This document shows positions 9,302 to 51,322 of a stretch of 64,000 bases of DNA, piece by piece (position 1 is the first letter of the stretch; the number at the start of each line of letters is the position of its first letter). This DNA is from Pseudobdellovibrionaceae bacterium (GTDB lineage: Bacteria; Bdellovibrionota; Bdellovibrionia; Bdellovibrionales; Bdellovibrionaceae): NCBI GenBank assembly GCA_044359815.1, contig JBIKLL010000006.1, positions 1-64,000 on the forward strand, read 5' to 3'. The position numbers and the translations under genes are program-made. A model generated the notes under the pieces. That model ran no database searches and was not told where the DNA came from. It saw only the letters and a program-made list of their open reading frames with translations.

Positions 9302-10135
9302 TTAACCAATCATCTTTAGTGCTAAAGCAGGGATTTGATTTGCCTGCACCAACACAGCTGATGAGGCTTGCAACAAAACGTTGTTTCTTGCAGATTCTGC
9401 AGTTGCAGCTGCGATATCAGTGTCTCTGATTCGCGAATTTGCTGCTGACAAGTTTTCATGTTGCACGCCCAGATTTTCAATAGTTGACTGAAATCTGTTT
9501 TGTAAGGCACCCAGGTTAGCGCGAAAGCCTGCAAGCTTTGCTTGAGCATCGTCTAACACTGTTAACGCTTCTTGCGCACCTTCTTTAGAATTAAATTCGA
9601 TTCCATCAACACCTAAATTGTCGATTGTCGCGTTTAATACTGAAGGGTCAAAAGACACTCTGTCTTCGAAATCATCATTATTGATACCAACTTGGATATC
9701 AAATTTTTCGCCGCTACCATCCAACAGATTTGTTGAACCAAATCTTGTTGTTTTAGCGATCCTTTGCATTTCTTGTTTTAATTGTTGAACTTCCATATCA
9801 ATGTAAGTTCTTTCTCTTTGTCCAACTGTATCGGAGGCTGCTTGGATACCAAGCTCTCTCAAACGGGTAAGAATATTTGATCCTTCATTCAAACCGCCTT
9901 CAGCAACTTGAACCATGGATATACCATCGTTCGCATTTCGGCTAGCTTGCGATAAAGATCTGATTTGTGATTTCAAAGCTTCACTGATCCCCAATCCAGC
10001 AGCATCATCTGCGGCTTTGGTGATACGGCTACCAGAAGATAGCTGTGAAAAACTTTTTTGGATCTCCCGCTGTGATGCGGTCATCGTTCTTTGTGCGTTT
10101 ATCGACGGCACATTTGTCGTAATTCTCATTCCCAT
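9302..10135 (-). CDS. fliC: Flagellin (fliC#1)
   Basis: LSSGSRITKAADDAAGL, NLSAANSRIRDTD. Confidence 0.96.
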   Translation of the reverse strand: MGMRITTNVPSINAQRTMTASQREIQKSFSQLSSGSRITKAADDAAGLGISEALKSQIRSLSQASRNANDGISMVQVAEGGLNEGSNILTRLRELGIQAASDTVGQRERTYIDMEVQQLKQEMQRIAKTTRFGSTNLLDGSGEKFDIQVGINNDDFEDRVSFDPSVLNATIDNLGVDGIEFNSKEGAQEALTVLDDAQAKLAGFRANLGALQNRFQSTIENLGVQHENLSAANSRIRDTDIAAATAESARNNVLLQASSAVLVQANQIPALALKMIG

Positions 10136-10278
10136 TTGGGACCTCCTCGGGTTGTTGTGAACACGTTGGTGATCTCAACTTCAAATGTTCAAACTCAGGC
10201 GATCTTGGATTGGGCAGTCACTCCCTTTCTAGATCTCGCTTGATCATTTTTTGTTTTGATCAACTTGCTTCACACAAC

Positions 10279-10305
10279 CTTTCGGCGAGGTCCGGTTTGG
10301 CTTTA
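10279..10305 (-). promoter_or_regulatory. Sigma-28 (FliA) promoter of fliC#1
   Basis: TAAA-N15-GCCGAAAG on minus strand. Confidence 0.8.
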
Positions 10306-10487
10306 GTCGAGTCCAGCGAATCTGGACCATCGTCTGTGTGTTTCTGGACCATGGTCGATGTTTTTCCTGGACCAAAGTTTTGAAATCAGGACCTTGATTT
10401 GGTTTTTTTGCCAGCTACAAGTCCAGCCAGCGATATGTCCAGTCGGGCTAGACCCAGACTTATGCAGTAGTGGGCGTATTAAATGGG

Positions 10488-10955
10488 CTATCGAATCCAG
10501 AATGACTGAGAGACAAAATCAGTAGCAGTAAACAAATCCGTGTCCAGCTCGATCGCTCGGTAGGATTTAGGACCGTCACCTCTGTTAGACATGGTGTATT
10601 CGCTGACTTTCACAGGATCTTTATCAGGATAAAATGCAACGTCATAATGACCTACATAAATAAAATCACCTGTTGATTTATAAACTTCGTGTTCAGTGTC
10701 AGTAGATCCATCGCTTTTCTTGATCTGATAGACCCAGGTGTCCTTATCAGTACTGACCATGGCATACAAACCGTGGGCCTGATTGTTAAAGCTAAACAAG
10801 CAAACTTTCTTGATCGGATCATCATTCCAACCCTTGGTAACAACCGTTTTGGCGCAAGCTTTATAAGCAATCTCGTCTTCCAACATTATTGCATTAAAGA
10901 TCGCAAAGGACTGATGAGTGAACGCGGTTAACAAAATGGTTAAAAGGTATTTCAT
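10488..10955 (-). CDS. Secreted hypothetical protein
   Basis: 155 aa, signal peptide MKYLLTILLTAFTHQSFA. Confidence 0.7.
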   Translation of the reverse strand: MKYLLTILLTAFTHQSFAIFNAIMLEDEIAYKACAKTVVTKGWNDDPIKKVCLFSFNNQAHGLYAMVSTDKDTWVYQIKKSDGSTDTEHEVYKSTGDFIYVGHYDVAFYPDKDPVKVSEYTMSNRGDGPKSYRAIELDTDLFTATDFVSQSFWIR

Positions 10956-11254
10956 GACTACGGTTTAATCATCTTATCCCGATGGGACAATCTAATTGTC
11001 AGGTATTGAAAAAGCTCTTACGAGGTCGCCAGTAAATTTTTATAAAAGTCCCCAACCCTAAGAGTACCCCCAGAGGTTTTATCCCCTGGGGTAGGTAGGT
11101 ACACTGGAGGCAAAGGAGTGCCTCCTAATAAATTGATTTTAAATACTTAATCACAGTGGGGCATAAGTTCCCGCTAATTTCCGCCATAGCCCCACTACAG
11201 AGGGATTAGCCACAATGGAACCAGCTAAAAATGGTTCCTTTGTGTCGGTACAGT

Positions 11255-12088
11255 TTAACCGATCATTTTTAATGCTAATGATGGGATCTGGTTCGCTTGC
11301 ACCAATACAGCCGCAGAAGCTTGTAACAATACATTGTTTCTGGCTGATTCTGCTGTGGCATTAGCGACATCAGTATCCCTGATTCGCGAATTAGCGGCAG
11401 ACAGGTTTTCGTGCTGAACACCCAGATTTTCAACCGTTGATTGAAATCGGTTTTGCAAGGCCCCCAGATTGGCTCGAAAGGCTGCAACCTGAGCTTGAGC
11501 ATTGTCCACCACATTTAATGATGCTTGTGCGCCTTCTTTGGTAGTGAAATCTAAGTCAGATATTTCTAAATTGTCAGTCGTTGCGTTTAATCTGGAAGGA
11601 TCAAAAGAAATTCGATCTTCAAAATCATCGTTGTTAACGCCGACTTGAATGTCAAATTTTTCACCGCTTCCGTCCAACATCACAGTTGAACCAAATCGTG
11701 TTGTTTTTGATATACGTTGAATCTCGTTTTTAATCGCTTGAACTTCGGCATCGATGTATCCACGCTCTCTTTCACCGACAGTGTCAGATGAAGCCTGGAT
11801 GCCCAGTTCACGCATACGAGTTAATATATTTGAAATTTCGCCCAAACCACCCTCAGCGACTTGCACCATCGATATACCATCGTTGGCGTTTCTGGATGCT
11901 TGTGCCAATGACCTGATATTGGATTTCAAGTTTTCACTGATACCCAATCCAGCGGCATCGTCTGCAGCCTTAGTGATACGGCTTCCAGAAGACAATTGAG
12001 CATAGCTCTTCTGGATCTCACGCTGTGAGTTTGTCATGGTTCTTTGCGCATTGATCGCTGGTACGTTCGTAGTAATTCTCATTCCCAT
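11255..12088 (-). CDS. fliC: Flagellin (fliC#2), close paralog of fliC#1
   Basis: Same conserved N- and C-terminal flagellin motifs, 277 aa. Confidence 0.96.
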   Translation of the reverse strand: MGMRITTNVPAINAQRTMTNSQREIQKSYAQLSSGSRITKAADDAAGLGISENLKSNIRSLAQASRNANDGISMVQVAEGGLGEISNILTRMRELGIQASSDTVGERERGYIDAEVQAIKNEIQRISKTTRFGSTVMLDGSGEKFDIQVGVNNDDFEDRISFDPSRLNATTDNLEISDLDFTTKEGAQASLNVVDNAQAQVAAFRANLGALQNRFQSTVENLGVQHENLSAANSRIRDTDVANATAESARNNVLLQASAAVLVQANQIPSLALKMIG

Positions 12089-12263
12089 TGGGAACCTCCT
12101 TTTTATAGCAATCAGACTTTTGTCGAGTTTGTTACCTACACATCCCCGATCAACCTGAAATTTTCTGATTCCAGATCTTTTTCAAAAGCGAATCTTTCTG
12201 ATTGCTGTTGTTTAAATTTTTAATTTGTAGTTTTCAGAAACTTTCTTACTTGCTACACCCATT

Positions 12264-12290
12264 CAATCGGCGAGGTCGTGGAAGGCTTTA
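12264..12290 (-). promoter_or_regulatory. Sigma-28 promoter of fliC#2
   Basis: TAAA-N15-GCCGATTG. Confidence 0.82.
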
Positions 12291-12542
12291 GTCGCGTCGA
12301 GCATTTCTGGACCCAAGTCAGATAGGATCTGGACGTTTGATTAGCAAAAACGCTAGACCAAAATACTGATTTCAGGACCTAGGTTTTAGATTTTCAGGAC
12401 TAACCGCTTAGGACTTATAACCATCAGAGTAATGTCCAGTCTGTCCAGGGACCTGCTATTGTCCAGTCTGGTTAAATTCAGTAAAAAACTTTGCTCATAT
12501 TATTGCGTATCCGTAGAATGAATTTCATCACGAGGGGATTTT

Positions 12543-13073
12543 ATGAATAAGCTATTTTTGTTTTTAGTTTTACTGACCGCAGGCTGCAGCTCCAATGTTA
12601 AAAAAGAACAAAAATTAATGAGCTCTAATGCACCCTCTGTAAGCCCCAGTTTTTTAAAATGTGCAGGGTTGAGCATGCTCAGCAATAATATGAATAAATC
12701 TCAAAAGGCCGATTTTTTTGCCGAAGCTCAGTTTGCTCAGATTGCCGAATTAGCTTACGATTCATCCGCTCATAAAATTTCTGGAATGGCTCTGACACTG
12801 AAAATGGAAAAAGGCAATATTGCTATCGATGAACAAATGCCCATCAGCTTGACGATTACAGAAAACGAAAGTTCTAGTGAATCCAGAATGCTGGCTCAGT
12901 TTGTTGGCAAAGGCACCCTCAGTAAAACTTCGATCACAGGATTGCGATTGGTCGCCACTGAATCTCAACAAGGTGTCGTGTTGTATGCAATCGATCCCAC
13001 AAATATCATTCGCCCCATCGGCCAGCGCTGCGAACTCCAGCACGAGATCCTGAACCAGATCCTAACGAAATAG
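12543..13073 (+). CDS. Hypothetical lipoprotein
   Basis: Lipobox LTAGC, SD GAGGGG. Confidence 0.7.
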   Translation: MNKLFLFLVLLTAGCSSNVKKEQKLMSSNAPSVSPSFLKCAGLSMLSNNMNKSQKADFFAEAQFAQIAELAYDSSAHKISGMALTLKMEKGNIAIDEQMPISLTITENESSSESRMLAQFVGKGTLSKTSITGLRLVATESQQGVVLYAIDPTNIIRPIGQRCELQHEILNQILTK

Positions 13074-13145
13074 CTTTTGAAAATCTGCGTACAGAAATCT
13101 TTTCTGCTTGCAGATTTTCAATAAGATTTCATCTAGTCTGCTTAT

Positions 13146-13164
13146 ATCGAGAACAATTGTCATT
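13146..13164 (+). promoter_or_regulatory. Putative Fur box
   Basis: ATCGAGAACAATTGTCATT, 13/19 match to AATGATAATCATTATCATT, upstream of an iron permease. Confidence 0.45.
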
Positions 13165-13206
13165 TTCAGGTGCTTTATGTAGGTTTGCCCTTATTCCGGA
13201 GGCCCC

Positions 13207-15168
13207 ATGAAATTCCTGTGCAGATTTCTGTTTTTACCCGCCCAAGCCTTAACTGCTAAAAAAATAGCTCAAAGATTTTATCAATCACTATTGATTGCAG
13301 CTATAGCAGCCATATTAGTGAGCTCACCTTGGCAGAGGGCTTTTGCTAAAACAGATAACCCAGCCATAGTGATTCATTTGTTGGATTATATTGCTAACGA
13401 TTATGCAGGAGCCGTCGAAAACGGCAAAGTCATCAGCGAACCAGAATACGCCGAACAAAAAGAATTTGCTGGAATTATTTCTGAAGCGTCTCAGGAAATC
13501 GCTCAGTTCAGAAATGACCAAGAGTTTGTAAATAAAATTAAAAAATTCGTTGCGATGATAGACAATAAAGCACTTGGAACTGAAGTCACCAAGACTGCCA
13601 GGGAATTGCAAGCCACTGCCCTGAAATTGGCAGACATCAAGGTTTCGCCCACCGTATGGCCCAGCCTTGAAGCCGGTCAAAAATTATATGCAAAAAACTG
13701 CGCCTCCTGCCATGGCGAAAAAGGTTTAGGCGATGGCGAAGCTGGTAAAAATCTGGATCCCAAGCCCGCTGATTTCACAGACCCTGCAAAAATGTTGGGA
13801 AGCTCCCCTTACAATTATTTTAATACCATTCGCCTGGGCGTGCCCGGCACAGGGATGCCTGGATTCAGCGACCTGAGCGACAGTCAAATCTGGGATTTGG
13901 CATTTTATGTAAAATCCATCGGCCACAAGGATAAAGGCAACGGCTCTGATGAGTTATCAATACCTCTGTCAGAAGTCGCCTCTTTGAATGACCAACAAAT
14001 TTTGTCAAAAATGTCAGGAGCTCAGGATCAGGCCAGTTATATTTTGGCCACCATCAGAAATTATTCTCCGGTTTTAAAATCAGATTATTATTTAAATCTT
14101 GCTAAAGAACTTTTGAACGAAAGCTTTACGATTTACCAGGCCAATAATCTAGATGCTGCGAACAATCTGGCGCTCAGATCCTATCTGGAAGGTGTCGAGG
14201 CCATCGAACCAAAAATCAAAGCTAACGATGCCAGTCTGATTATTAAAATTGAATCGATTATGGCCGAATACCGTGAAGCCGTTAAAATCCCCAACAACAA
14301 GGCTCAGGTGCAAGAAAAATTAAACGCTGCCTTGGGAACAATTGATGAAATACAAAAGGTCTTAACCGATAAAAAAATGACTCATTCAATGATTTTTAGT
14401 TCTGTGTTTAGTATTTTTTTAAGGGAAGGATTTGAATCAATCCTGATAATAATCGTTTTGTTAAGCTCGCTAAAAATCATGAAGGTCGATCATGCAATTA
14501 AATGGGTTCATTTTGGCTGGATTTCGGCAGTAGCCCTGGGCGTGATGATTTGGTTTATGTCAGGATTTCTGACTCAACTAAGCGGAACCAGCCGCGAATT
14601 GGTTGAGGGATTTATTTCTTTGTTTGCTGTGGTGGTTTTGGTTTATGTGGGCTTTCACTTGCACAGAAATTCCATCGCCAAACAGTGGAATGAATTCCTG
14701 AAAGTCCGCGTGGCAGAGCTGGCAAAAACCCAAAACCTATTGGGCCTTGCGATTTTGTCATTCCTGGCAGTTTTTCGCGAAGCCTTTGAGGTTGTTTTAT
14801 TTTTAAGAGCCATCTGGTTTGATGTTGATGATCAGGGTAAATCCTATGCCGCGGGTGGAATGATTTCAGCCTCTTTATTTATTTTGCTGATTGCATTTCT
14901 GATGCTCAAAACCAGCGTCAGAATGCCGATTTCGACTTTGTTTAAAGTTTGCTCTGCCGTGATGGCGTTTTTGGCAATTACATTATTAGGTAAAGGCATC
15001 CATAGTTTTCAAGAAACCGGGGCATTACCTTTTAGCTCGACAACATTAATCCCCCGTGTGGAACTGTTGGGTATTTACCCTTCCTGGGAATCCGTAATTG
15101 CACAAATAGCCTTGTTGGCATTTATTGTTTTGATTATGCGTAAAGATTTAAAAACTCTGTCTGCATAG
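13207..15168 (+). CDS. Cytochrome c / FTR1-family iron (or lead) permease
   Basis: CASCH haem motif, REGFE and REAFE motifs, multiple TM helices. Confidence 0.9.
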   Translation: MKFLCRFLFLPAQALTAKKIAQRFYQSLLIAAIAAILVSSPWQRAFAKTDNPAIVIHLLDYIANDYAGAVENGKVISEPEYAEQKEFAGIISEASQEIAQFRNDQEFVNKIKKFVAMIDNKALGTEVTKTARELQATALKLADIKVSPTVWPSLEAGQKLYAKNCASCHGEKGLGDGEAGKNLDPKPADFTDPAKMLGSSPYNYFNTIRLGVPGTGMPGFSDLSDSQIWDLAFYVKSIGHKDKGNGSDELSIPLSEVASLNDQQILSKMSGAQDQASYILATIRNYSPVLKSDYYLNLAKELLNESFTIYQANNLDAANNLALRSYLEGVEAIEPKIKANDASLIIKIESIMAEYREAVKIPNNKAQVQEKLNAALGTIDEIQKVLTDKKMTHSMIFSSVFSIFLREGFESILIIIVLLSSLKIMKVDHAIKWVHFGWISAVALGVMIWFMSGFLTQLSGTSRELVEGFISLFAVVVLVYVGFHLHRNSIAKQWNEFLKVRVAELAKTQNLLGLAILSFLAVFREAFEVVLFLRAIWFDVDDQGKSYAAGGMISASLFILLIAFLMLKTSVRMPISTLFKVCSAVMAFLAITLLGKGIHSFQETGALPFSSTTLIPRVELLGIYPSWESVIAQIALLAFIVLIMRKDLKTLSA

Positions 15169-15281
15169 TCGTTGCGATAAATATTTTTCAATACGTCTTG
15201 ATAAGCTTAGACATTAACTGGGGTCTTCTGACATTTTAGGCTTTGTGCAGCTATTTGCCCCCTGCCAGGATCCGCAAGACA

Positions 15282-15560
15282 ATGGAAAAAAATCACGAAC
15301 TGACCAAAACACTGAAAGCTATTATCAAATCCAAACGTGATTTTAATCCTGCAGAGATTGCCCAGAAGCTGGGAATCACAAAATCTAGTTTGAATAAAAT
15401 CGTAAAGGGCCAGAGCGAACCCACACTGGCTGTGCTGTTGGAGTTTCTAAATAAATCAAAGGCCCCAAAAAAATTGCGCAAAAAAGTTTTGTTAATTCAT
15501 TTTCAGAATCAGCTGACTGATCCTGATCACAGACAGCAAATCGAAGATTTGATTGGCTGA
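15282..15560 (+). CDS. XRE-family helix-turn-helix protein
   Basis: EIAQKLGITKSSLNKIVKGQSEPT; ATG 15282. Confidence 0.7.
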   Translation: MEKNHELTKTLKAIIKSKRDFNPAEIAQKLGITKSSLNKIVKGQSEPTLAVLLEFLNKSKAPKKLRKKVLLIHFQNQLTDPDHRQQIEDLIG

Positions 15561-15627
15561 TTTAGACACCACGATTTCACTCCGCTTTAAGAATCTGAAA
15601 TGTGTATTTTGAAGATTTAGTTTTATA

Positions 15628-15657
15628 CAAAAAATAACCCCCCGAGGGCGGGCTTAA
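15628..15657 (-). terminator. Probable intrinsic terminator downstream of fliC#3
   Basis: Minus strand AGCCCGCCCTCGGGGGGTT followed by ATTTTTT. Confidence 0.4.
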
Positions 15658-15843
15658 GAACCAAATCTGTGTCTGTGTGGGCATTACAGATCGGCTCTTT
15701 AAAACTCTAAATAAAACTCTTAATAGAAATCCCTTAAAAAACTGTAAGTATAATTTCTCTTCAACTATGAAGACTTAAAATAGTCTTCACTATTCAAGAG
15801 GCCTTTTTAAAAACCGGGAGCACATAAGCACCCCCGAAATCAT

Positions 15844-16671
15844 TTAGCCAATTAATTTTAATGCAACACCAGGTGTTTGGTTGGCCTGAGCCAGTACCGA
15901 CACCGCAGCGCTTTGAAGAACTTGAGCAGACGCCATTTCGGCAGTTTCTTTTGCTACGTCTGTATCTCGGATACGAGAATTCGCAGCACTCAAGTTTTCA
16001 TATTGAATGTCCAAGTTGCTGACTGTTGCGTTCAAACGGCTTTGGATAGATCCAAAGTTTGCTCTCATCGCACCAATTTTTTGCAGACCTTCATCGACGA
16101 CTTCTAAGGCATCACGAGCCGAAGATTTGTCTTCAAAACTCAGCCCAGCAATACCAACTTCATCAGCAGTGGCATTTGAGGATAATGAATATTTAATTAC
16201 GTTTTCTTCACCACCAAAAGCACCGACATGGAATTCAAGCTCTCCGCCTGAACCATCCAACAATCGCTTGTCACCAAATCTGGTGGTTTTAGCGATACGG
16301 TCAGCTTCATCAATTAATTGCGAAGCTTCTTGGTGTAAGAATTTTCTTTCAGCGTCTCCGATATTGTCAGAAGCTGATTGAATTCCCAACTCTCTTAAAC
16401 GAATCATGATATTTGTGATTTCATTTAATCCACCTTCAGATACCTGAATCGCTGATCCAGCGTTGAAGGCGTTGTTTCTGGCTTGCGCAATACCTCTAAT
16501 TTGACCGCGTAAGCTTTCAGAAATCGCTAATCCAGCGGCATCATCTGCTGCTTGAACTATTCGACTTCCCGAAGCAAGAGCCTGAGTTGAATGCTCCATT
16601 CGCTTCTGTTGTATGCCCAGAACCCTTTGCGCTGCAATCGACGGTAGGTTCGTTTGTATTCTTAAGCCCAT
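15844..16671 (-). CDS. fliC: Flagellin (fliC#3)
   Basis: LASGSRIVQAADDAAGLAISE, NLSAANSRIRDTD. Confidence 0.96.
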   Translation of the reverse strand: MGLRIQTNLPSIAAQRVLGIQQKRMEHSTQALASGSRIVQAADDAAGLAISESLRGQIRGIAQARNNAFNAGSAIQVSEGGLNEITNIMIRLRELGIQSASDNIGDAERKFLHQEASQLIDEADRIAKTTRFGDKRLLDGSGGELEFHVGAFGGEENVIKYSLSSNATADEVGIAGLSFEDKSSARDALEVVDEGLQKIGAMRANFGSIQSRLNATVSNLDIQYENLSAANSRIRDTDVAKETAEMASAQVLQSAAVSVLAQANQTPGVALKLIG

Positions 16672-16885
16672 GTGTTCCTCCTACAAACCTTCGTTTGTGT
16701 TAAGACGCGCTCCTTGATAGCATCTGTTTATTAATTCTGTTTGCTGGAGTGGATTCCTGTTTGCGAAAGGTGACTGATCTTTCGCAAACGGAATGTGCCC
16801 GTTAGGCTGGTGAAGGGCTCTTGACTTTGACTGCTGTCCCGAGGTCCTTAACAAGTCTGCGGTTGCTCCAACGTGTTCACAGAAC

Positions 16886-16912
16886 TTCTCGGCTAAGGTC
16901 CAGGAAGCTTTA
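16886..16912 (-). promoter_or_regulatory. Sigma-28 promoter of fliC#3
   Basis: TAAA-N15-GCCGAGAA. Confidence 0.8.
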
Positions 16913-17096
16913 GGTCTTTGGTCCAGTTTTGTTTTATGCGGCGCATCTTGTCTGCGTGATCACGAATGATTTTTAGGAAATTTTTTTCGACCAAGGTCTA
17001 GGTCTGAAGGTACGAATGATTTAAAACGAGTCATTAACCGCACACTCACCTGTCTTTGAATTTAAAATTCAGTGAAGCGTAAGTGTGCCAGGTTTT

Positions 17097-17921
17097 TCAA
17101 AGTAGCTTCAAAGCATACATAGGCATCTGATTGGCTTGAGCCAAAACTGCAATTTGATATTGCTGTAAAGCTTGGGCCTTAAACATATCTGCGGTTGCCT
17201 TTGCGACATCAGTGTCAGCAATTCGCGAGCGTGCAGCTTCCAAATTTTCTACCTGCAACATTCCGTTATTTTGCACTGATTCTAATCTGCTTTGCACAGC
17301 TGCAAAATTAGCTCTGGCCGCACCGATTTCTTGCAATGCCGAATCCACCATTTCAATAGAATCCACTGCAGACGATTTATCTGCGACTGACAACCCATCA
17401 ATGCCCAAGCCAGAAGCCGTCGTATCAGTATTGCTCGTATAGGTAATTATATTTTCAGCACCTTTGTAAGCGCCGACTTGATACTGGTAAGTTTTCTCGG
17501 TGCCATCCAACAATTTATTCCCACCAAATCTTGTTGTCTGAGCAATACGGTCAAACTCTTCAACCAACTGAGTGTGTTCGACGTCTAGCATTTCCCTTTC
17601 CACCTCAGAATAGGTGTCACTGGCGGCTTGAATCGCCAGCTCACGCAATCTGATCAGAATATTATTTTGTTCGTTCAGCCCGCCCTCTGCCACTTGAATC
17701 ATCGAATATGCATTTTCAGCATTTTTAACGCCCGTCCTAACCCCTGTAATTTGCCCACGCAAATGTTCAGCGATTGTAAATTCAGCTGCACTTTCATTTG
17801 GATTATCAAATTTGTTCCCCGAGGCTAGTGCTTTCAATGCACCTTCGTTTTCTCGGGAAGACTTCGAAATTTGGCGCTGTGCCGCCAGTGAAGCCATATT
17901 TGTATTGATTCTAAGTCCCAT
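17097..17921 (-). CDS. fliC: Flagellin (fliC#4), divergent
   Basis: MGLRINTN, QVAEGGLNE, LRELAIQAASDT, ARSRIADTD. Confidence 0.93.
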   Translation of the reverse strand: MGLRINTNMASLAAQRQISKSSRENEGALKALASGNKFDNPNESAAEFTIAEHLRGQITGVRTGVKNAENAYSMIQVAEGGLNEQNNILIRLRELAIQAASDTYSEVEREMLDVEHTQLVEEFDRIAQTTRFGGNKLLDGTEKTYQYQVGAYKGAENIITYTSNTDTTASGLGIDGLSVADKSSAVDSIEMVDSALQEIGAARANFAAVQSRLESVQNNGMLQVENLEAARSRIADTDVAKATADMFKAQALQQYQIAVLAQANQMPMYALKLL

Positions 17922-45064: not shown

Positions 45065-45592
45065 CTACAAACTGGCTTCAGGATCTCGGTCAGGAACTTT
45101 AATCGCAATTTTGTTGCTGCCCAGGCTCTTTAAAGTCTTGCCTGGATTTTGAACTACACGTTGTTGTAGCGCCGTAAAAATGGGCTCCCTGATAGCCAAA
45201 TTATTATCCTGCAATACACACTGCCTAGCAGTTTTCTTGTCGATATTGATCACAATAGGAGCTTTTAAATTGGCCGTCATCTTGGTCGGATCGGCCGGTA
45301 TAGTGACGATACAAAATTTTGAAACATGGGCTTCTGGTCCGATTTTTAATGCTTCCAGATCAGACTTGGCCAACTGCAATTTTGTGTTCGGAGCACAAAT
45401 CTCGGGCTCCAATAGCGGAAAGGCAATCGCTGCATCATCACAGCTTTGCAACCAAGCAAAAATATCATCGTGAGGATCGTCCAAAAGGACAAACTTTTTC
45501 AAATCAGCAAAACCCAAAAGGCCTTCGCTAAATTGCAAAATTTCATTTTCATTTACTGAAACTTGACCAAAGCGAGTTGTCTTGATGACCAC
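45065..45592 (-). CDS. fliW: Flagellar assembly factor FliW (CsrA antagonist)
   Basis: TTRFG, FSEGLLGF, WLQS, TANLKAPIVIN. Confidence 0.93.
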   Translation of the reverse strand: MVIKTTRFGQVSVNENEILQFSEGLLGFADLKKFVLLDDPHDDIFAWLQSCDDAAIAFPLLEPEICAPNTKLQLAKSDLEALKIGPEAHVSKFCIVTIPADPTKMTANLKAPIVINIDKKTARQCVLQDNNLAIREPIFTALQQRVVQNPGKTLKSLGSNKIAIKVPDRDPEASL

Positions 45593-45758: not shown

Positions 45759-45986
45759 TTATTTCTTAAGCATTTCGCCCAATTTGCGAGTCGCATCAGT
45801 TGATGCGTGGGCTGAATCTTTATTGGTTTCCTGGATAGCTAAATACACTTCTTCACGGTGAATTTTAGTTTCACGTGGCGCTTCAATGCCCAGTCTAACC
45901 TGTTTGCCTTTAATTTGAACAACGCGAATTTTGATGTGGTCATCAATAGCGATGCTTTCACCCAACTTCCTTGTAAGAACCAGCAT
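45759..45986 (-). CDS. csrA: Carbon storage regulator CsrA
   Basis: MLVLTRKLGESIAI..VRLGIEAP..IHREE. Confidence 0.96.
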   Translation of the reverse strand: MLVLTRKLGESIAIDDHIKIRVVQIKGKQVRLGIEAPRETKIHREEVYLAIQETNKDSAHASTDATRKLGEMLKK

Positions 45987-49129: not shown

Positions 49130-49465
49130 CTATGACCATTTAAGTTCTTCATCCACCAATCTATCAGCGATAGCTCTGGCGTCTGTTTTGTATTTTCCTT
49201 CATCAATTAATTTTTGCAGTCTTTGAACTTTTTCGTTATCAATGTCCGAACCGCCTTTTGCAATTTCTTTTGCTTTATTCATCATCTGAGCTTTTTCTGA
49301 CAAATTAATTTTTGCTGAGCTTTCGGCTTCACCCATTTTGCCTAAAGTATCTAAACCAGCATCCTTAATTGACTGTTCTGCTTTTGCCGCTTTCGAGGCT
49401 TTTTCAGAGCGCGAAGTATCAATAATATTAAGACTTTGCCCAATTTTGTTGTGAGTAATTTTCAT
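49130..49465 (-). CDS. flgM: Anti-sigma-28 factor FlgM
   Basis: INLS, EKVQRLQKLIDEGKYKTDARAIADRL. Confidence 0.88.
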   Translation of the reverse strand: MKITHNKIGQSLNIIDTSRSEKASKAAKAEQSIKDAGLDTLGKMGEAESSAKINLSEKAQMMNKAKEIAKGGSDIDNEKVQRLQKLIDEGKYKTDARAIADRLVDEELKWS

Positions 49466-49530
49466 TCGAGCCTCCTGTAATAAAGTGTATCATATTGAGA
49501 CTTGTCGGACCAAATTTTAACTGTGCATTC

Positions 49531-49911
49531 TTACTTTTTATATTTTTCCAAGGCTTTGGTTTGTAGAGATTTGTCCAGTGGCATTGGGCCATTATTTGGC
49601 TGTTTCTGAGTGATTCCAAGAGCCTCTCCGTATTTATCCAACAGATTTTTATAAATGGTCTCGGACAGACCCAGGCCACCCTGGTCCCCCCATTTTTCAA
49701 CATACTCGTGATCTAGCTGTTCCTGAAAAATCTTCTGGCCCTGACTGACCGGGATTAGGCTGTCTTTGCCTGTGGTGGCCCGCATGGCTTTGACCATTTC
49801 GCGCATAAACTGTTTTTCATACAGTTTTCCAATTTCTTTAAATTTATTGTCCATTTTTTCGGGATCAATTTTTTGTTGAAGCGGAATGGCTTTTTGGATT
49901 TTTACCGACAT
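49531..49911 (-). CDS. flgJ: FlgJ, rod-binding domain only
   Basis: YEKQFMREMVKAMRAT, FQEQLD, GLGLSE; start at ATG 49911 or 49920. Confidence 0.82.
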   Translation of the reverse strand: MSVKIQKAIPLQQKIDPEKMDNKFKEIGKLYEKQFMREMVKAMRATTGKDSLIPVSQGQKIFQEQLDHEYVEKWGDQGGLGLSETIYKNLLDKYGEALGITQKQPNNGPMPLDKSLQTKALEKYKK

Positions 49912-50311
49912 CAGAGGCATCCCTGAATCTGATGTCGACTTGCCTTCGTCGCTGCTGCAAGCGCGCCCGTCTGGGGCGTGGCCGCGGTTTTCTTGGCATC
50001 GATACTCAGCATAGTCCGCGCATCCATGCGCTCCTGTCTTCGCTGCGCTCGACCAAAAAAGTTGGGAGGTAGAGTCAGAGTCGTATCGCTTCCGTGCGAC
50101 TTGAACTCTTTTAGCTTCGGCCTTTGTGATACCAATCCTTGATATCTTGCTGACCTATTGCTCCTGTTTCCTGCTAGAAACGAAATTCGAGATTCCTGAC
50201 CGTCCTTGGCTCCGATCTCTAACTCGTCCCCCCCGGGCCCATGCTCCATCCATAGAGCGTGAGCTGATATTTTTATTCTAAATACAAAATCGTCAAATCC
50301 ATAATTATTTT
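49909..50311 (-). ncRNA. Candidate CsrA-binding (CsrB/RsmZ-like) RNA element between flgI and flgJ
   Basis: 15 GGA on minus strand vs 1 on plus; 8 ANGGA and 4 CAGGA; several in hairpin loops. Confidence 0.6.
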
Positions 50312-51322
50312 TCACAAAACTTCAAGCTCCCCGTGCAAAGCTCCAGCTGCCTTGATCGACTGAAGTATAGTCACCAAGTCTTTAGGACTGACTCCCAGCC
50401 GATTCAGCGCCTGTACTAGGTCTCCGACGTTCACACCCGAGTCCAGTACCATGACTTTTTCCTCGGCCGTTTCTTTGGAATCTTTTCCGGATTTTTTGTC
50501 AGCGACTTTCACCGACAGATTTCCGTGGGCAATAGCGACCTTGGAAATTTTAACTTTGTCACCAATGATGACAGTACCTGTTTTTTCATTGATCACCACT
50601 CGCGCTTTTGAGTCAGGATTCACATTGATGGCCTCGATGGTTGCTAACAGCTCAACACCCTTACCCTCGTAGGCAAATGGAGTGATCACATCAATGGTTC
50701 CGGCGTCTTTTGCCGAAGCATACTGACCGCTCAGTTCTTTGTTGATGGTCAATGCCGTTCTGGCTGCAGTGATAAAATCAGGATTGTGCAATGTCAGTCT
50801 GAACATTTTGCGACTGGCAAAATCAGAACTGATGTCGCGTTCGATGATTCCACCATTGGGCACTCTGCCAACTGTTGTGTGTGCGGATTTGTCTCCGCCT
50901 CCTATAACAATCGACCCTTGTGCCACCGCAAAAACTTGCTCATTCGCAGCTCTTAGCGGCGTTTGCAACAGGACACCGCCTTCCAGCGATGCCGAATCCC
51001 CTAATGCACTGACCGTAACATCCAGGGGATTTCCGGCTTTACTGAATGCCGGCAGATTAGCTGTAACGATGACGGCTGCAACGTTTTTGGATTCGACCTG
51101 CTGGTTGTCCAGTTTGACTCCCAGTTTGTCCAACATTCGCCCCAAGGATTTAGATGTGAATTCGCTTTTGCCATCGCCAGTGCCCTTTAAGCCCACCACA
51201 ATTCCATAACCGACCAGCTGGTTTTCACGCACTCCACGGATGCTTGAAATGTCTTTCAACCTTGCGGCTTCCGACAAAAATCCCACTAACACAAAACAAG
51301 TTATAAAAAATAAATTTCTCAC
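50312..51322 (-). CDS. flgI: Flagellar P-ring protein
   Basis: RLKDI, NQLVGYGIVVGLKGTGD, KAAGALHGEL. Confidence 0.96.
   Translation of the reverse strand: MRNLFFITCFVLVGFLSEAARLKDISSIRGVRENQLVGYGIVVGLKGTGDGKSEFTSKSLGRMLDKLGVKLDNQQVESKNVAAVIVTANLPAFSKAGNPLDVTVSALGDSASLEGGVLLQTPLRAANEQVFAVAQGSIVIGGGDKSAHTTVGRVPNGGIIERDISSDFASRKMFRLTLHNPDFITAARTALTINKELSGQYASAKDAGTIDVITPFAYEGKGVELLATIEAINVNPDSKARVVINEKTGTVIIGDKVKISKVAIAHGNLSVKVADKKSGKDSKETAEEKVMVLDSGVNVGDLVQALNRLGVSPKDLVTILQSIKAAGALHGELEVL

Follow-up and report, generated by a model that had tools for sequence, protein, structure and literature searches.

A conserved small RNA between flgI and flgJ in Bdellovibrionales, the ortholog of APsRNA1, is a candidate for a CsrA-titrating RNA

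We analyzed a stretch of 64,000 nucleotides (nt) from a Pseudobdellovibrionaceae bacterium (assembly GCA_044359815.1, contig JBIKLL010000006.1, positions 1 to 64,000; this whole stretch is called the window). On its minus strand, a flagellar cluster has the gene order flgF, flgG, flgA, flgH, flgI, a gap of 400 nt, flgJ, flgM, flgN, flgK, flgL, csrA and fliW. It is nearly certain that this gap encodes a conserved and expressed small RNA (sRNA) at 50053-50269, and comparison of the sequences showed that it is the ortholog of APsRNA1 from Bdellovibrio bacteriovorus HD100. We consider it fairly probable that this candidate sRNA titrates CsrA and works beside FliW, the protein antagonist of CsrA; here CsrA binding is inferred from the form of the hairpin loops. 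The coordinates of all features are collected in Table 1.

The flgI-flgJ gap had been noticed in the initial annotation because it lies amid close-set flg genes, and the measured distance agrees with this. Most of the other flg junctions abut or are not longer than about 30 nt; the exceptions are flgJ/flgM (about 65 nt), flgL/csrA (about 90 nt) and csrA/fliW (about 166 nt). Weak matches to an open frame of 134 amino acids (aa) in the gap led to 13 flgI-flgJ spacers (257-534 nt), which were aligned. In the alignment, about 220 nt form a strongly conserved element, and the sequence after it could not be aligned. A pattern of 18 letters was then taken from the most conserved block and found at least 80 loci in the species collection; about 35 chance matches were reckoned for this pattern across the whole collection. 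Among the pattern loci listed, about 63 carry the element and 17 have no trace of it by eye. Nearly all element-bearing loci are labelled Bdellovibrio, Bdellovibrionaceae or Pseudobdellovibrionaceae. Contigs labelled as metagenome-assembled genomes of Streptomyces griseus, Bacillota and Proteobacteria (L046, L085 and L071, respectively) carry a Bdellovibrio-type RNA beside flgI, and these contigs are probably mis-binned or mislabelled.

Fifty-six unique sequences were aligned with MAFFT without reference to structure (alignment A1; 44 of the 56 rows had been selected by the invariant-block pattern), and a covariance model (R1) was built from A1. R1 matches the window genome once, at 50053-50275 with an E value of 7e-42; thus, the RNA is single-copy here. 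Of the 151 genomes sampled from the order, 117 have an R1 match, nearly always a single one. A sample of the phylum gave R1 matches in 22 of 24 genomes of the order and none in the 127 genomes from other orders. In the whole-genome searches, an antisense match (L138, plus strand, E value of 7.5e-4) and exact duplicates were dropped (86 to 83). The 83 unique matches have flgI upstream in 82 cases, flgJ downstream in 80 and both in 79, the misses being at contig ends. These results showed that the RNA gene occurs as a single copy at a fixed place between flgI and flgJ throughout the order and is not a dispersed repeat, an alternative that had been raised at the outset. The most diverged homologs still keep the hairpins CACGGAUG and GCAGGAUGC and the terminator. 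When Rfam was searched, no family was found at E values up to 10 in 49400-50800, nor at E values up to 5 in five homolog loci. Membership in a known Rfam family was rejected, as the only rows were eukaryotic long non-coding RNAs and microRNAs at chance level.

The identity with APsRNA1 rests on sequence and position. R1 matches named B. bacteriovorus records at E values of about 1e-60, and the letters agree by eye with the printed APsRNA1 sequence (PMC3627812 Fig. S1). In sampled genome G100, the R1 match is located at 499369-499589, and the published APsRNA1 at 499,375-499,581 (PMC3627812). Karunker et al. (2013, PLoS One 8:e61850, PMC3627812) described APsRNA1 as a plus-strand RNA of 207 nt, of which the start was determined by tobacco acid pyrophosphatase-dependent 5′ sequencing. 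The published sequence ends with CCCCUUU, a terminator-like end. The level of APsRNA1 is 50,451 reads per kilobase per million mapped reads (RPKM) in attack phase versus 3,181 RPKM in growth phase, a difference of 16-fold (PMC3627812 Table 2). HD100 flgI (498,325-499,332) and flgJ (499,642-500,349) have 15 and 8 RPKM in attack phase (PMC3627812 Table S1). APsRNA1 is hundreds of times above the flgI or flgJ mRNA, and more than 1000-fold above flgJ in attack phase. Because of its mapped start, terminator-like end and abundance, APsRNA1 is more than a stretch of operon mRNA. The initial annotation had described an intra-operonic element. This is right for the position, since the cluster encodes CsrA and FliW according to Pfam, but in B. 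bacteriovorus the RNA is an independent transcript. The authors assigned no function to APsRNA1 and reported no homology outside B. bacteriovorus, and the word CsrA occurs 0 times in the available text of PMC3627812. In our literature searches, APsRNA1 was named in no other paper, and no later work was found under Bdellovibrio combined with CsrA, small RNA or sRNAs. The RNA has been on record in one species since 2013; the spread of the family through the order, its supported structure and the CsrA reading appear not to be in print.

Contigs from RNA libraries of the window organism also contain this RNA. Contigs of four libraries (four studies) are identical to the window and cover 50056-50258, 50074-50247, 50067-50245 and 50055-50191, although such contigs show neither strand, ends nor level, and DNA may be present in the libraries. 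In the four runs, no contig from 49400-51000 fell on the flgI or flgJ parts; lack of coverage does not count as evidence. These runs also contain other short contigs, which agree with the window in the invariant block only and have the flanking hairpins in the form seen in relatives.

The RNA is composed of a 5′ hairpin (H1) and a domain with hairpins H3, H4, H5 and H6, which is closed by a long-range helix (P2) and a U run. The initial annotation had marked 49909-50311 as the element. A structured RNA is present there, but only about 217 of these 403 nt belong to it. Six hairpins had been named. Four of them, in H1 (50243-50258), H3, H5 and H6 (50086-50099), are conserved and covary, and the other two (50018-50031 and 49909-49934) are in an unconserved tail, which folds like shuffled sequence. 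This tail of 140 nt has no alignable counterpart in the spacers of 12 relatives, and its GGA count and fold are no different from those of shuffles (fold reached by 186 of 500). For these reasons, we left the tail out of the RNA. That the tail is a CsrA-controlled leader of flgJ would be a guess from its motifs. A simple terminator scan found nothing on the minus strand and one match on the plus strand; the scan is blind to P2 because it allows only loops of 3-8 nt.

The number of GGA motifs was compared with the expectation. The minus strand of 49909-50311 contains 15 GGA and the plus strand 1, and all 15 positions listed previously were exact. The GGA density in the gap is 3.7 per 100 nt, versus 0.74-2.36 in 12 neighboring same-strand genes. 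As a control, 500 dinucleotide-preserving shuffles were folded, and a GGA was counted as in a loop only if it was wholly inside a hairpin loop of the minimum free energy (MFE) fold. For the 403 nt, the raw count of 15 (shuffles, 11.1 ± 2.4) was reached by 39 of 500 and is thus only mildly high. In contrast, the 5 GGA in hairpin loops (shuffles, 0.94 ± 0.93) were reached by none. The placement of GGA in loops is far above chance. When 50053-50269 alone was used, 4 GGA were in loops (shuffles, 0.54 ± 0.72; reached by 1 of 500), and the MFE was -72.4 kcal/mol versus -57.2 ± 4.3 kcal/mol (reached by 2 of 500); a separate fold gave z = -3.5.

Alignment of the relatives' spacers, which had been suggested as a check, gave both conservation of GGA and covariation of stems. 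Of 81 unique full-length homologs (L054 and L029, cut by contig ends, are excluded), 72, 73, 67, 65 and 77 keep the five GGA sites, respectively. In A1, 90.5% of the cells are paired, versus 81.6% in partner shuffles and 36-44% with slid partners; 252 cells are changed on both sides, versus 64 ± 12 in shuffles (reached by 0 of 500), and the excess over both controls is inflated by the kinship of the sequences and by a structure drawn from the same data. Covariation is mostly in H1, H5 and H6, and P2 is conserved with few changes. An all-against-all helix scan of A1 was too permissive and was dropped in favor of the named structures. The five pairs of H4 never vary in A1, where 44 of the 56 rows were chosen by that very block; distant members found by the model have wobble and compensatory changes there. 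The invariance of block 50166-50181 had not been mentioned in the initial annotation, nor had the open frame of 134 aa. A further observation concerns the 3′ CUCU(GA) (50072-50083 in the window), which has two possible partners, the AGAG upstream in the closing helix (50217-50225) and a local AGAG beside H6 (about 50101-50106). Both pairings are partly supported in the alignment and may represent a conformational switch.

The loops were then compared with CsrA sites. The CsrA site obtained by in vitro selection (SELEX) is RUACARGGAUGU, with GGA in mostly 6-nt loops closed by AC/GU, and the CsrB repeat is CAGGA(U/A/C)G (PMC7652899). Elsewhere, CsrA sites are given as CANGGANG hexaloops (PMC4894983). 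H1, H3 and H6 fit this published site: 53-56 of 56 sequences have the same A, GGA and G, both N positions vary, and C precedes A in most rows. In the H1 loop, A, GGA and G are present in 56 of 56, and the N positions are T46/A7/G1 and T43/C9/A4. In H3, the counts out of 56 are CCA 56, G 56, G 53, A 56 and G 54, with N free. In H6, A, GGA and G are again found in 56 of 56. In other words, the loop signature [C]A-N-GGA-N-G is fixed while the stems covary. Per RNA, the homologs contain 1.78 CANGGANG in sense orientation versus 0.00 in antisense; in the window, the motif is at 50208, 50096, 50028 and 49925. The RNA thus has the mark of Csr/Rsm-type RNAs, multiple GGA exposed in hairpin loops of a short non-coding RNA. 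The genes csrA and fliW of a FliW-type CsrA system are in the same flagellar cluster, 4 kb downstream of the RNA, and 140 of the 151 genomes sampled from the order gave a CsrA match. CsrA from B. bacteriovorus acts as a repressor of hag in B. subtilis (PMC13443453).

Possible targets were sought among flagellin leaders. Three of the seven flagellin leaders of this genome carry CANGGANG, and one of them has a hairpin at -40 and a site at the ribosome site. Among 292,352 genome windows, GGA ≥ 10, ANGGA ≥ 5 and CANGGANG ≥ 2, thresholds set post hoc at the RNA's own values, were reached only by the RNA and one flagellin leader. This leader (G000:C28:8816-9035, minus strand; gene C28:8414-8824) has CAAGGAGG at -33 and -14 and is a likely CsrA target, judging from its motifs. 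Four of the seven flagellin genes are located in the window at 9713-17909 on the minus strand (starts near 10123, 12076, 16659 and 17909), and their leaders differ in CsrA-type motifs.

According to the mechanism that we propose, the RNA would bind several CsrA dimers via four or five exposed [C]A-N-GGA-N-G loops, which are 29-47 nt apart. It would thereby titrate CsrA off mRNA targets, namely flagellin leaders and perhaps flgJ here, and would be a second, competitive antagonist of CsrA beside the protein FliW. Published expression data of B. bacteriovorus bear on the timing. The open reading frame (ORF) at 504657-505184 of G100 is FliW by Pfam; in Table S1 of PMC3627812, it is named a putative transmembrane protein and has 41 RPKM in attack phase versus 3,077 RPKM in growth phase (75-fold). 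Flagellin Bd0604 has 11,984 RPKM in attack phase and 6 RPKM in growth phase (PMC3627812 Table S1). Because the maximum of APsRNA1 and of the flagellin mRNAs falls in attack phase and that of fliW mRNA in late growth phase, the RNA would be the main brake on CsrA in the swimming cell. More speculatively, the RNA (attack phase) and FliW (late growth phase) would cover different stages of the life cycle, and CsrA would be released when the RNA declines after prey entry. It is conceivable, and we propose it only tentatively, that this is the first dedicated RNA decoy of CsrA in a FliW-type system and that the two antagonists split the life cycle of the predator: FliW would free flagellin translation while flagella are built, the RNA would store CsrA in the swimming, non-growing cell, and its decay after prey entry would free CsrA for an immediate shut-off of flagellin and other attack-phase mRNAs.

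Two further observations should be added. In G100:504050-505300 (L180), a CsrA ORF of 75 aa at 504164-504391 has no row in the searched part of Table S1 (PMC3627812). APsRNA3, which has a FliA promoter and contains AAGGAUC and CAGGAUA, is located at 561,854-561,981, just upstream of the attack-phase flagellin Bd0604 (from 562,130), and APsRNA4 follows this flagellin gene directly (PMC3627812). From these features, APsRNA3 may be a flagellin leader and a CsrA site.

Several points weigh against titration of CsrA by this RNA. The raw GGA count of 50053-50269 is 10 versus 7.2 ± 1.7 in shuffles (reached by 42 of 500), which is not significant. The GGA of H4 sits partly in the stem, the H5 site is UGA in 5 of 56 sequences, and the invariance of the H4 block suggests some other sequence-specific contact. 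No FliA promoter was flagged for APsRNA1 (PMC3627812), and FliW-type systems are reported to be anti-correlated with Csr sRNA machinery (PMC7652899). With the start placed by homology, the TTGAC-like box is only 10 nt upstream of the -10 box, an odd geometry. The RNA tracks the flagellar locus and not CsrA: it is present in 116 of 134 genomes with FlgI versus 1 of 17 without. Among 12 sampled genomes with CsrA and no FlgI match, 11 lack the RNA. Moreover, 7 of the 9 genomes from one genus of the same family gave no R1 match although they contain csrA and flgI. In one of its genomes (G108, L179), flgJ starts in the flgI stop codon (TAATG) and there is no spacer; hence the RNA can be lost and is dispensable there. 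Two genomes of that genus keep a diverged RNA (L153 and L161). Finally, no Rfam Csr/Rsm model matches 49400-50800 or the five homolog loci. Because of this, "CsrB/RsmZ-like", the wording of the initial annotation, can mean only analogous; the RNA is an analog, not a homolog, of CsrB/RsmZ, and membership in that family had to be given up. The 11 sampled genomes without a CsrA match (7 lack the RNA; the 4 that have it are assemblies of 360-810 contigs) are uninformative on co-occurrence because most of the 7 also miss flagellar genes. As a separate observation, in the genomes with CsrA and no FlgI match, several of which are complete single contigs of 1.8-2.4 Mb, CsrA seems to persist without a P-ring gene.

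The start of the RNA was also considered from the side of the promoter. The sequence TA.AA. is conserved at -11 to -6 in the relatives. A simple promoter scan instead paired TTGACG-16-AAAAAT, which would place the start near 50262, versus about 50269 by homology. We take the TTGAC-like/-10 pair to fit neither the sigma-70 spacing nor the sigma-54 or sigma-28 consensus. Just upstream of the -10 box, at about -48 to -29, a dyad TGTTTC-N5-GAAACA was found with a strict pattern in 17 of 83 relatives (L109, L113, L118, L122 and others), including distant families. The window has a degenerate counterpart at 50291-50307, and in the clade of the window only the TTGAC half is left. This dyad looks like an operator for a regulator of the RNA.

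Table 1 Features of the flgI-flgJ region and neighboring genes in the window
Feature	Position	Strand	Basis or remark
sRNA of about 217 nt, ortholog of APsRNA1 by sequence	50053..50269	minus	5′ end by homology to the mapped start in B. bacteriovorus; 3′ end at U run
Promoter-like region; TAGAAT 50280-50275, 5 nt before the inferred start; TTGACG 50296-50291	50275..50296	minus	Read from the sequence
Hairpin H1, loop UAUGGAUG, GGA 50249-50251	50237..50264	minus	All 11 pairs vary, 10 changed on both sides
P2 5′ strand, GGGGGG..GAGUUAGAG.UCG	50213..50234	minus	Pairs with 50064-50083 in MFE and centroid folds; GGGG/CCCC paired in 54-55 of 56
Hairpin H3, GCC-AAGGAC-GGU, GGA 50203-50205, fits CANGGANG	50199..50210	minus	GGA kept in 73 of 81
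Hairpin H4 in most conserved block, GUUUCU.GCAGGAAACAG, GGA 50169-50171	50166..50181	minus	Invariant in 13 of 13 spacers aligned without reference to the block; GGA in 67 of 81
Helix P5 around hairpin H5, GAUAUC-AAGGAUU-GGUAUC (50128-50146; GGA 50136-50138)	50113..50162	minus	All 6 H5 pairs changed on both sides; GGA in 65 of 81
Hairpin H6, GUCGC-ACGGAA-GCGAU, GGA 50091-50093, fits CANGGANG	50085..50100	minus	3 of 4 pairs changed on both sides; GGA in 77 of 81
P2 3′ strand, CGACUCUGACUC..CCUCCC, then U run 50055-50060; terminator-like end	50055..50083	minus	CUCCCC-like strand and U run end 56 of 56 aligned sequences
Lineage-specific tail or flgJ leader: GCGC-AUGGAU-GCGC (50018-50031) and CAGGGAUG (49925-49918) over likely flgJ ribosome site	49912..50052	minus	Two CANGGANG matches
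Accidental open frame, 134 aa, not a gene	49911..50315 (GTG 50315 to TGA 49911)	minus	No Pfam family; frame analysis in relatives
flgI, P-ring protein, upstream neighbor	50312..51322	minus	PF02119, E 2e-114
flgJ, rod-binding protein only, 126 aa, downstream neighbor	49531..49911	minus	PF10135, E 5e-12
csrA, 75 aa, L4, R44 and C-terminal extension; proposed partner of the RNA	45759..45986	minus	PF02599, E 7e-26; residues from translation
fliW, protein antagonist of CsrA	45065..45592	minus	PF02623, E 3e-35

Other explanations of the conserved element were weighed against titration of CsrA. The element might be a cis-acting leader or attenuator, in which its main effect is on the read-through of transcripts begun at flgI or at its own promoter past the P2/U-run terminator into flgJ-flgM-flgN-flgK-flgL-csrA-fliW, CsrA or another loop-bound factor tunes termination, and the short RNA is a terminated by-product. 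We regard this as unlikely; it is the form in which the multi-site cis switch of the initial annotation is retained, as a rival only. The terminator-like end is directly before flgJ, and the aligned flgJ start is 0-10 nt past the match in several relatives (L136, 0; L143, 1; L158, 2; L122, 4), so that in those relatives there is no room for a separate flgJ promoter. CUCU(GA) has two mutually exclusive partners, the AGAG of P2c or the local AGAG (P6), both with some covariation, and csrA is downstream, so that feedback would be possible. The attenuator role is kept alive by the terminator adjoining flgJ and by the two partners of CUCU. However, the B. bacteriovorus RNA exceeds the flgJ mRNA more than 1000-fold in attack phase, and flgM is up 15-fold in growth phase while the RNA falls (PMC3627812). 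Because the levels of the RNA and of flgJ and flgM diverge, the downstream output does not follow the RNA promoter. The alternative pairing of CUCU is no obvious antiterminator either, because the GGGGAG/CUCCCC stem and the U run stay intact. Furthermore, so high a level is typically seen for trans-acting or titrating RNAs.

A base-pairing, trans-acting sRNA is rather improbable in our judgment. The invariant block GUUUCUCGCAGGAAACAGGAGCAAUAGGUCAGCA would then be a seed for attack-phase mRNAs, and the GGA loops would be structural or would bring in CsrA as an auxiliary factor. The block is constant even where the hairpin would allow compensatory change, which is the usual mark of a seed, and this hint at a further sequence-specific contact keeps the explanation alive. 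Karunker et al. proposed base-pairing for APsRNAs in general (PMC3627812), and CsrA can promote sRNA-mRNA pairing in B. subtilis, according to a title cited in PMC7652899. A seed, however, leaves unexplained four further hairpins with fixed A, GGA and G and covarying stems. In addition, the block resembles a mimic of a ribosome site (CAGGAAACAGGAG), which is also a type of CsrA target.

It is still less probable that the RNA is a ligand for another partner (another RNA-binding protein, a flagellar export chaperone or the ribosome) and that its likeness to CsrA sites is coincidental. The tracking of the flagellar locus rather than csrA across genomes and the invariant sequence of H4 would agree with such a partner. 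On the other hand, csrA is in the same cluster in nearly every RNA-bearing genome. We know of no other bacterial RNA-binding protein with the site A-N-GGA-N-G in hexaloops.

The last alternative, which had been raised together with the dispersed repeat, is a protein gene. The frame of 134 codons fills the gap exactly, overlapping the flgI stop codon (GTGA) and the flgJ start codon (TGATG), and a stop-free sense frame over the whole RNA was found in 37 of 81 homologs. The frame was used for a translated search of 61 genomes and a Pfam search. Pfam gave no matching family, and the translated matches were weak, were in the flgI-flgJ spacers of relatives and contained 1-4 stops or frame switches. 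The spacings of five conserved anchors fall in all three classes modulo 3, for example 26/21/17 and 18/29/17 (n = 64, excluding 17 rows gapped at an anchor), and the registers of the stop-free frames differ (28/5/4). The number of stop-free frames is far above our expectation for random sequence, and the insertions and deletions are not in threes; composition (few T-starting stop triplets) and shared descent are the likely causes. Thus, a protein gene, which is contradicted by the anchor distances and the differing registers, by conservation that tracks base pairs rather than codons and by a C-terminal third that is the unconserved tail, was rejected as next to impossible, and the frame is accidental. 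The Pfam scan backs FlgI, rod-binding FlgJ, FlgM, FlgN, CsrA and FliW as the proteins of the cluster.

Five CsrA-type loops in a conserved and abundant RNA, together with csrA and fliW in one cluster, make titration of CsrA testable in a culturable organism. If it is true, an RNA unexplained since 2013 would gain a function, and the attack-to-growth switch of predatory bacteria, where CsrA is little known (PMC13443453), would gain a post-transcriptional layer. CsrA decoys would also have arisen more than once. Rfam has no entry for this RNA family, for which our alignments could serve as the seed of a model. The natural losses of the RNA, as in the genus that includes G108, are useful for comparison.

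APsRNA1 is the closest known RNA. Like the RNA of the window, it occupies the flgI-flgJ spacer and contains the blocks GGGGAGGGUGAG, GUUUCUCGCAGGAAACAGGAGCAAUAGGUCAGCA, GUGCAGGAUGCAC and ACUCCCCUUU, with a length of 207 versus about 217 nt (PMC3627812). The two differ in that expression was measured in HD100, whereas in the window organism it is seen in RNA-library contigs only. CsrB and CsrC of Enterobacteria and RsmX, RsmY and RsmZ of Pseudomonas and others are likewise short and abundant, with several GGA-loop hairpins, loops that fit CAGGA(U/A/C)G or CANGGANG, and a 3′ terminator. The window RNA would act as CsrB and RsmZ do, by competitive titration of CsrA dimers. However, it has no sequence or model homology to them, belongs to another phylum and is encoded inside a flagellar cluster. 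It coexists with fliW, whereas the Gammaproteobacteria are without fliW. It is closed by a long-range helix instead of a simple terminal hairpin and has 5 conserved sites versus about 18-22 in CsrB. Upstream, no palindromic box of the GacA/UvrY type was recognized, with no search aimed at it, and some relatives have a different dyad.

Two FliW-type systems are also comparable. In Campylobacter jejuni, the flaA leader antagonizes CsrA through GGA hexaloops in a FliW-type circuit (Dugar et al. 2016, PMC4894983). That titrator is the leader of a translated target mRNA and has two sites (PMC4894983), whereas the window RNA would be a dedicated non-coding RNA that has five sites and, judging from HD100, ends of its own. 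In the FliW-CsrA-flagellin switch of Bacillus subtilis (Mukherjee et al. 2011, via PMC7652899), as here, csrA and fliW are adjacent after flgK and flgL, CsrA has a C-terminal extension, and flagellin leaders combine a hairpin site with a site at the ribosome site (PMC7652899). No sRNA antagonist is known in the B. subtilis system; there, FliW is an allosteric antagonist, and an RNA decoy would differ from it by competing for the face of CsrA that binds RNA.

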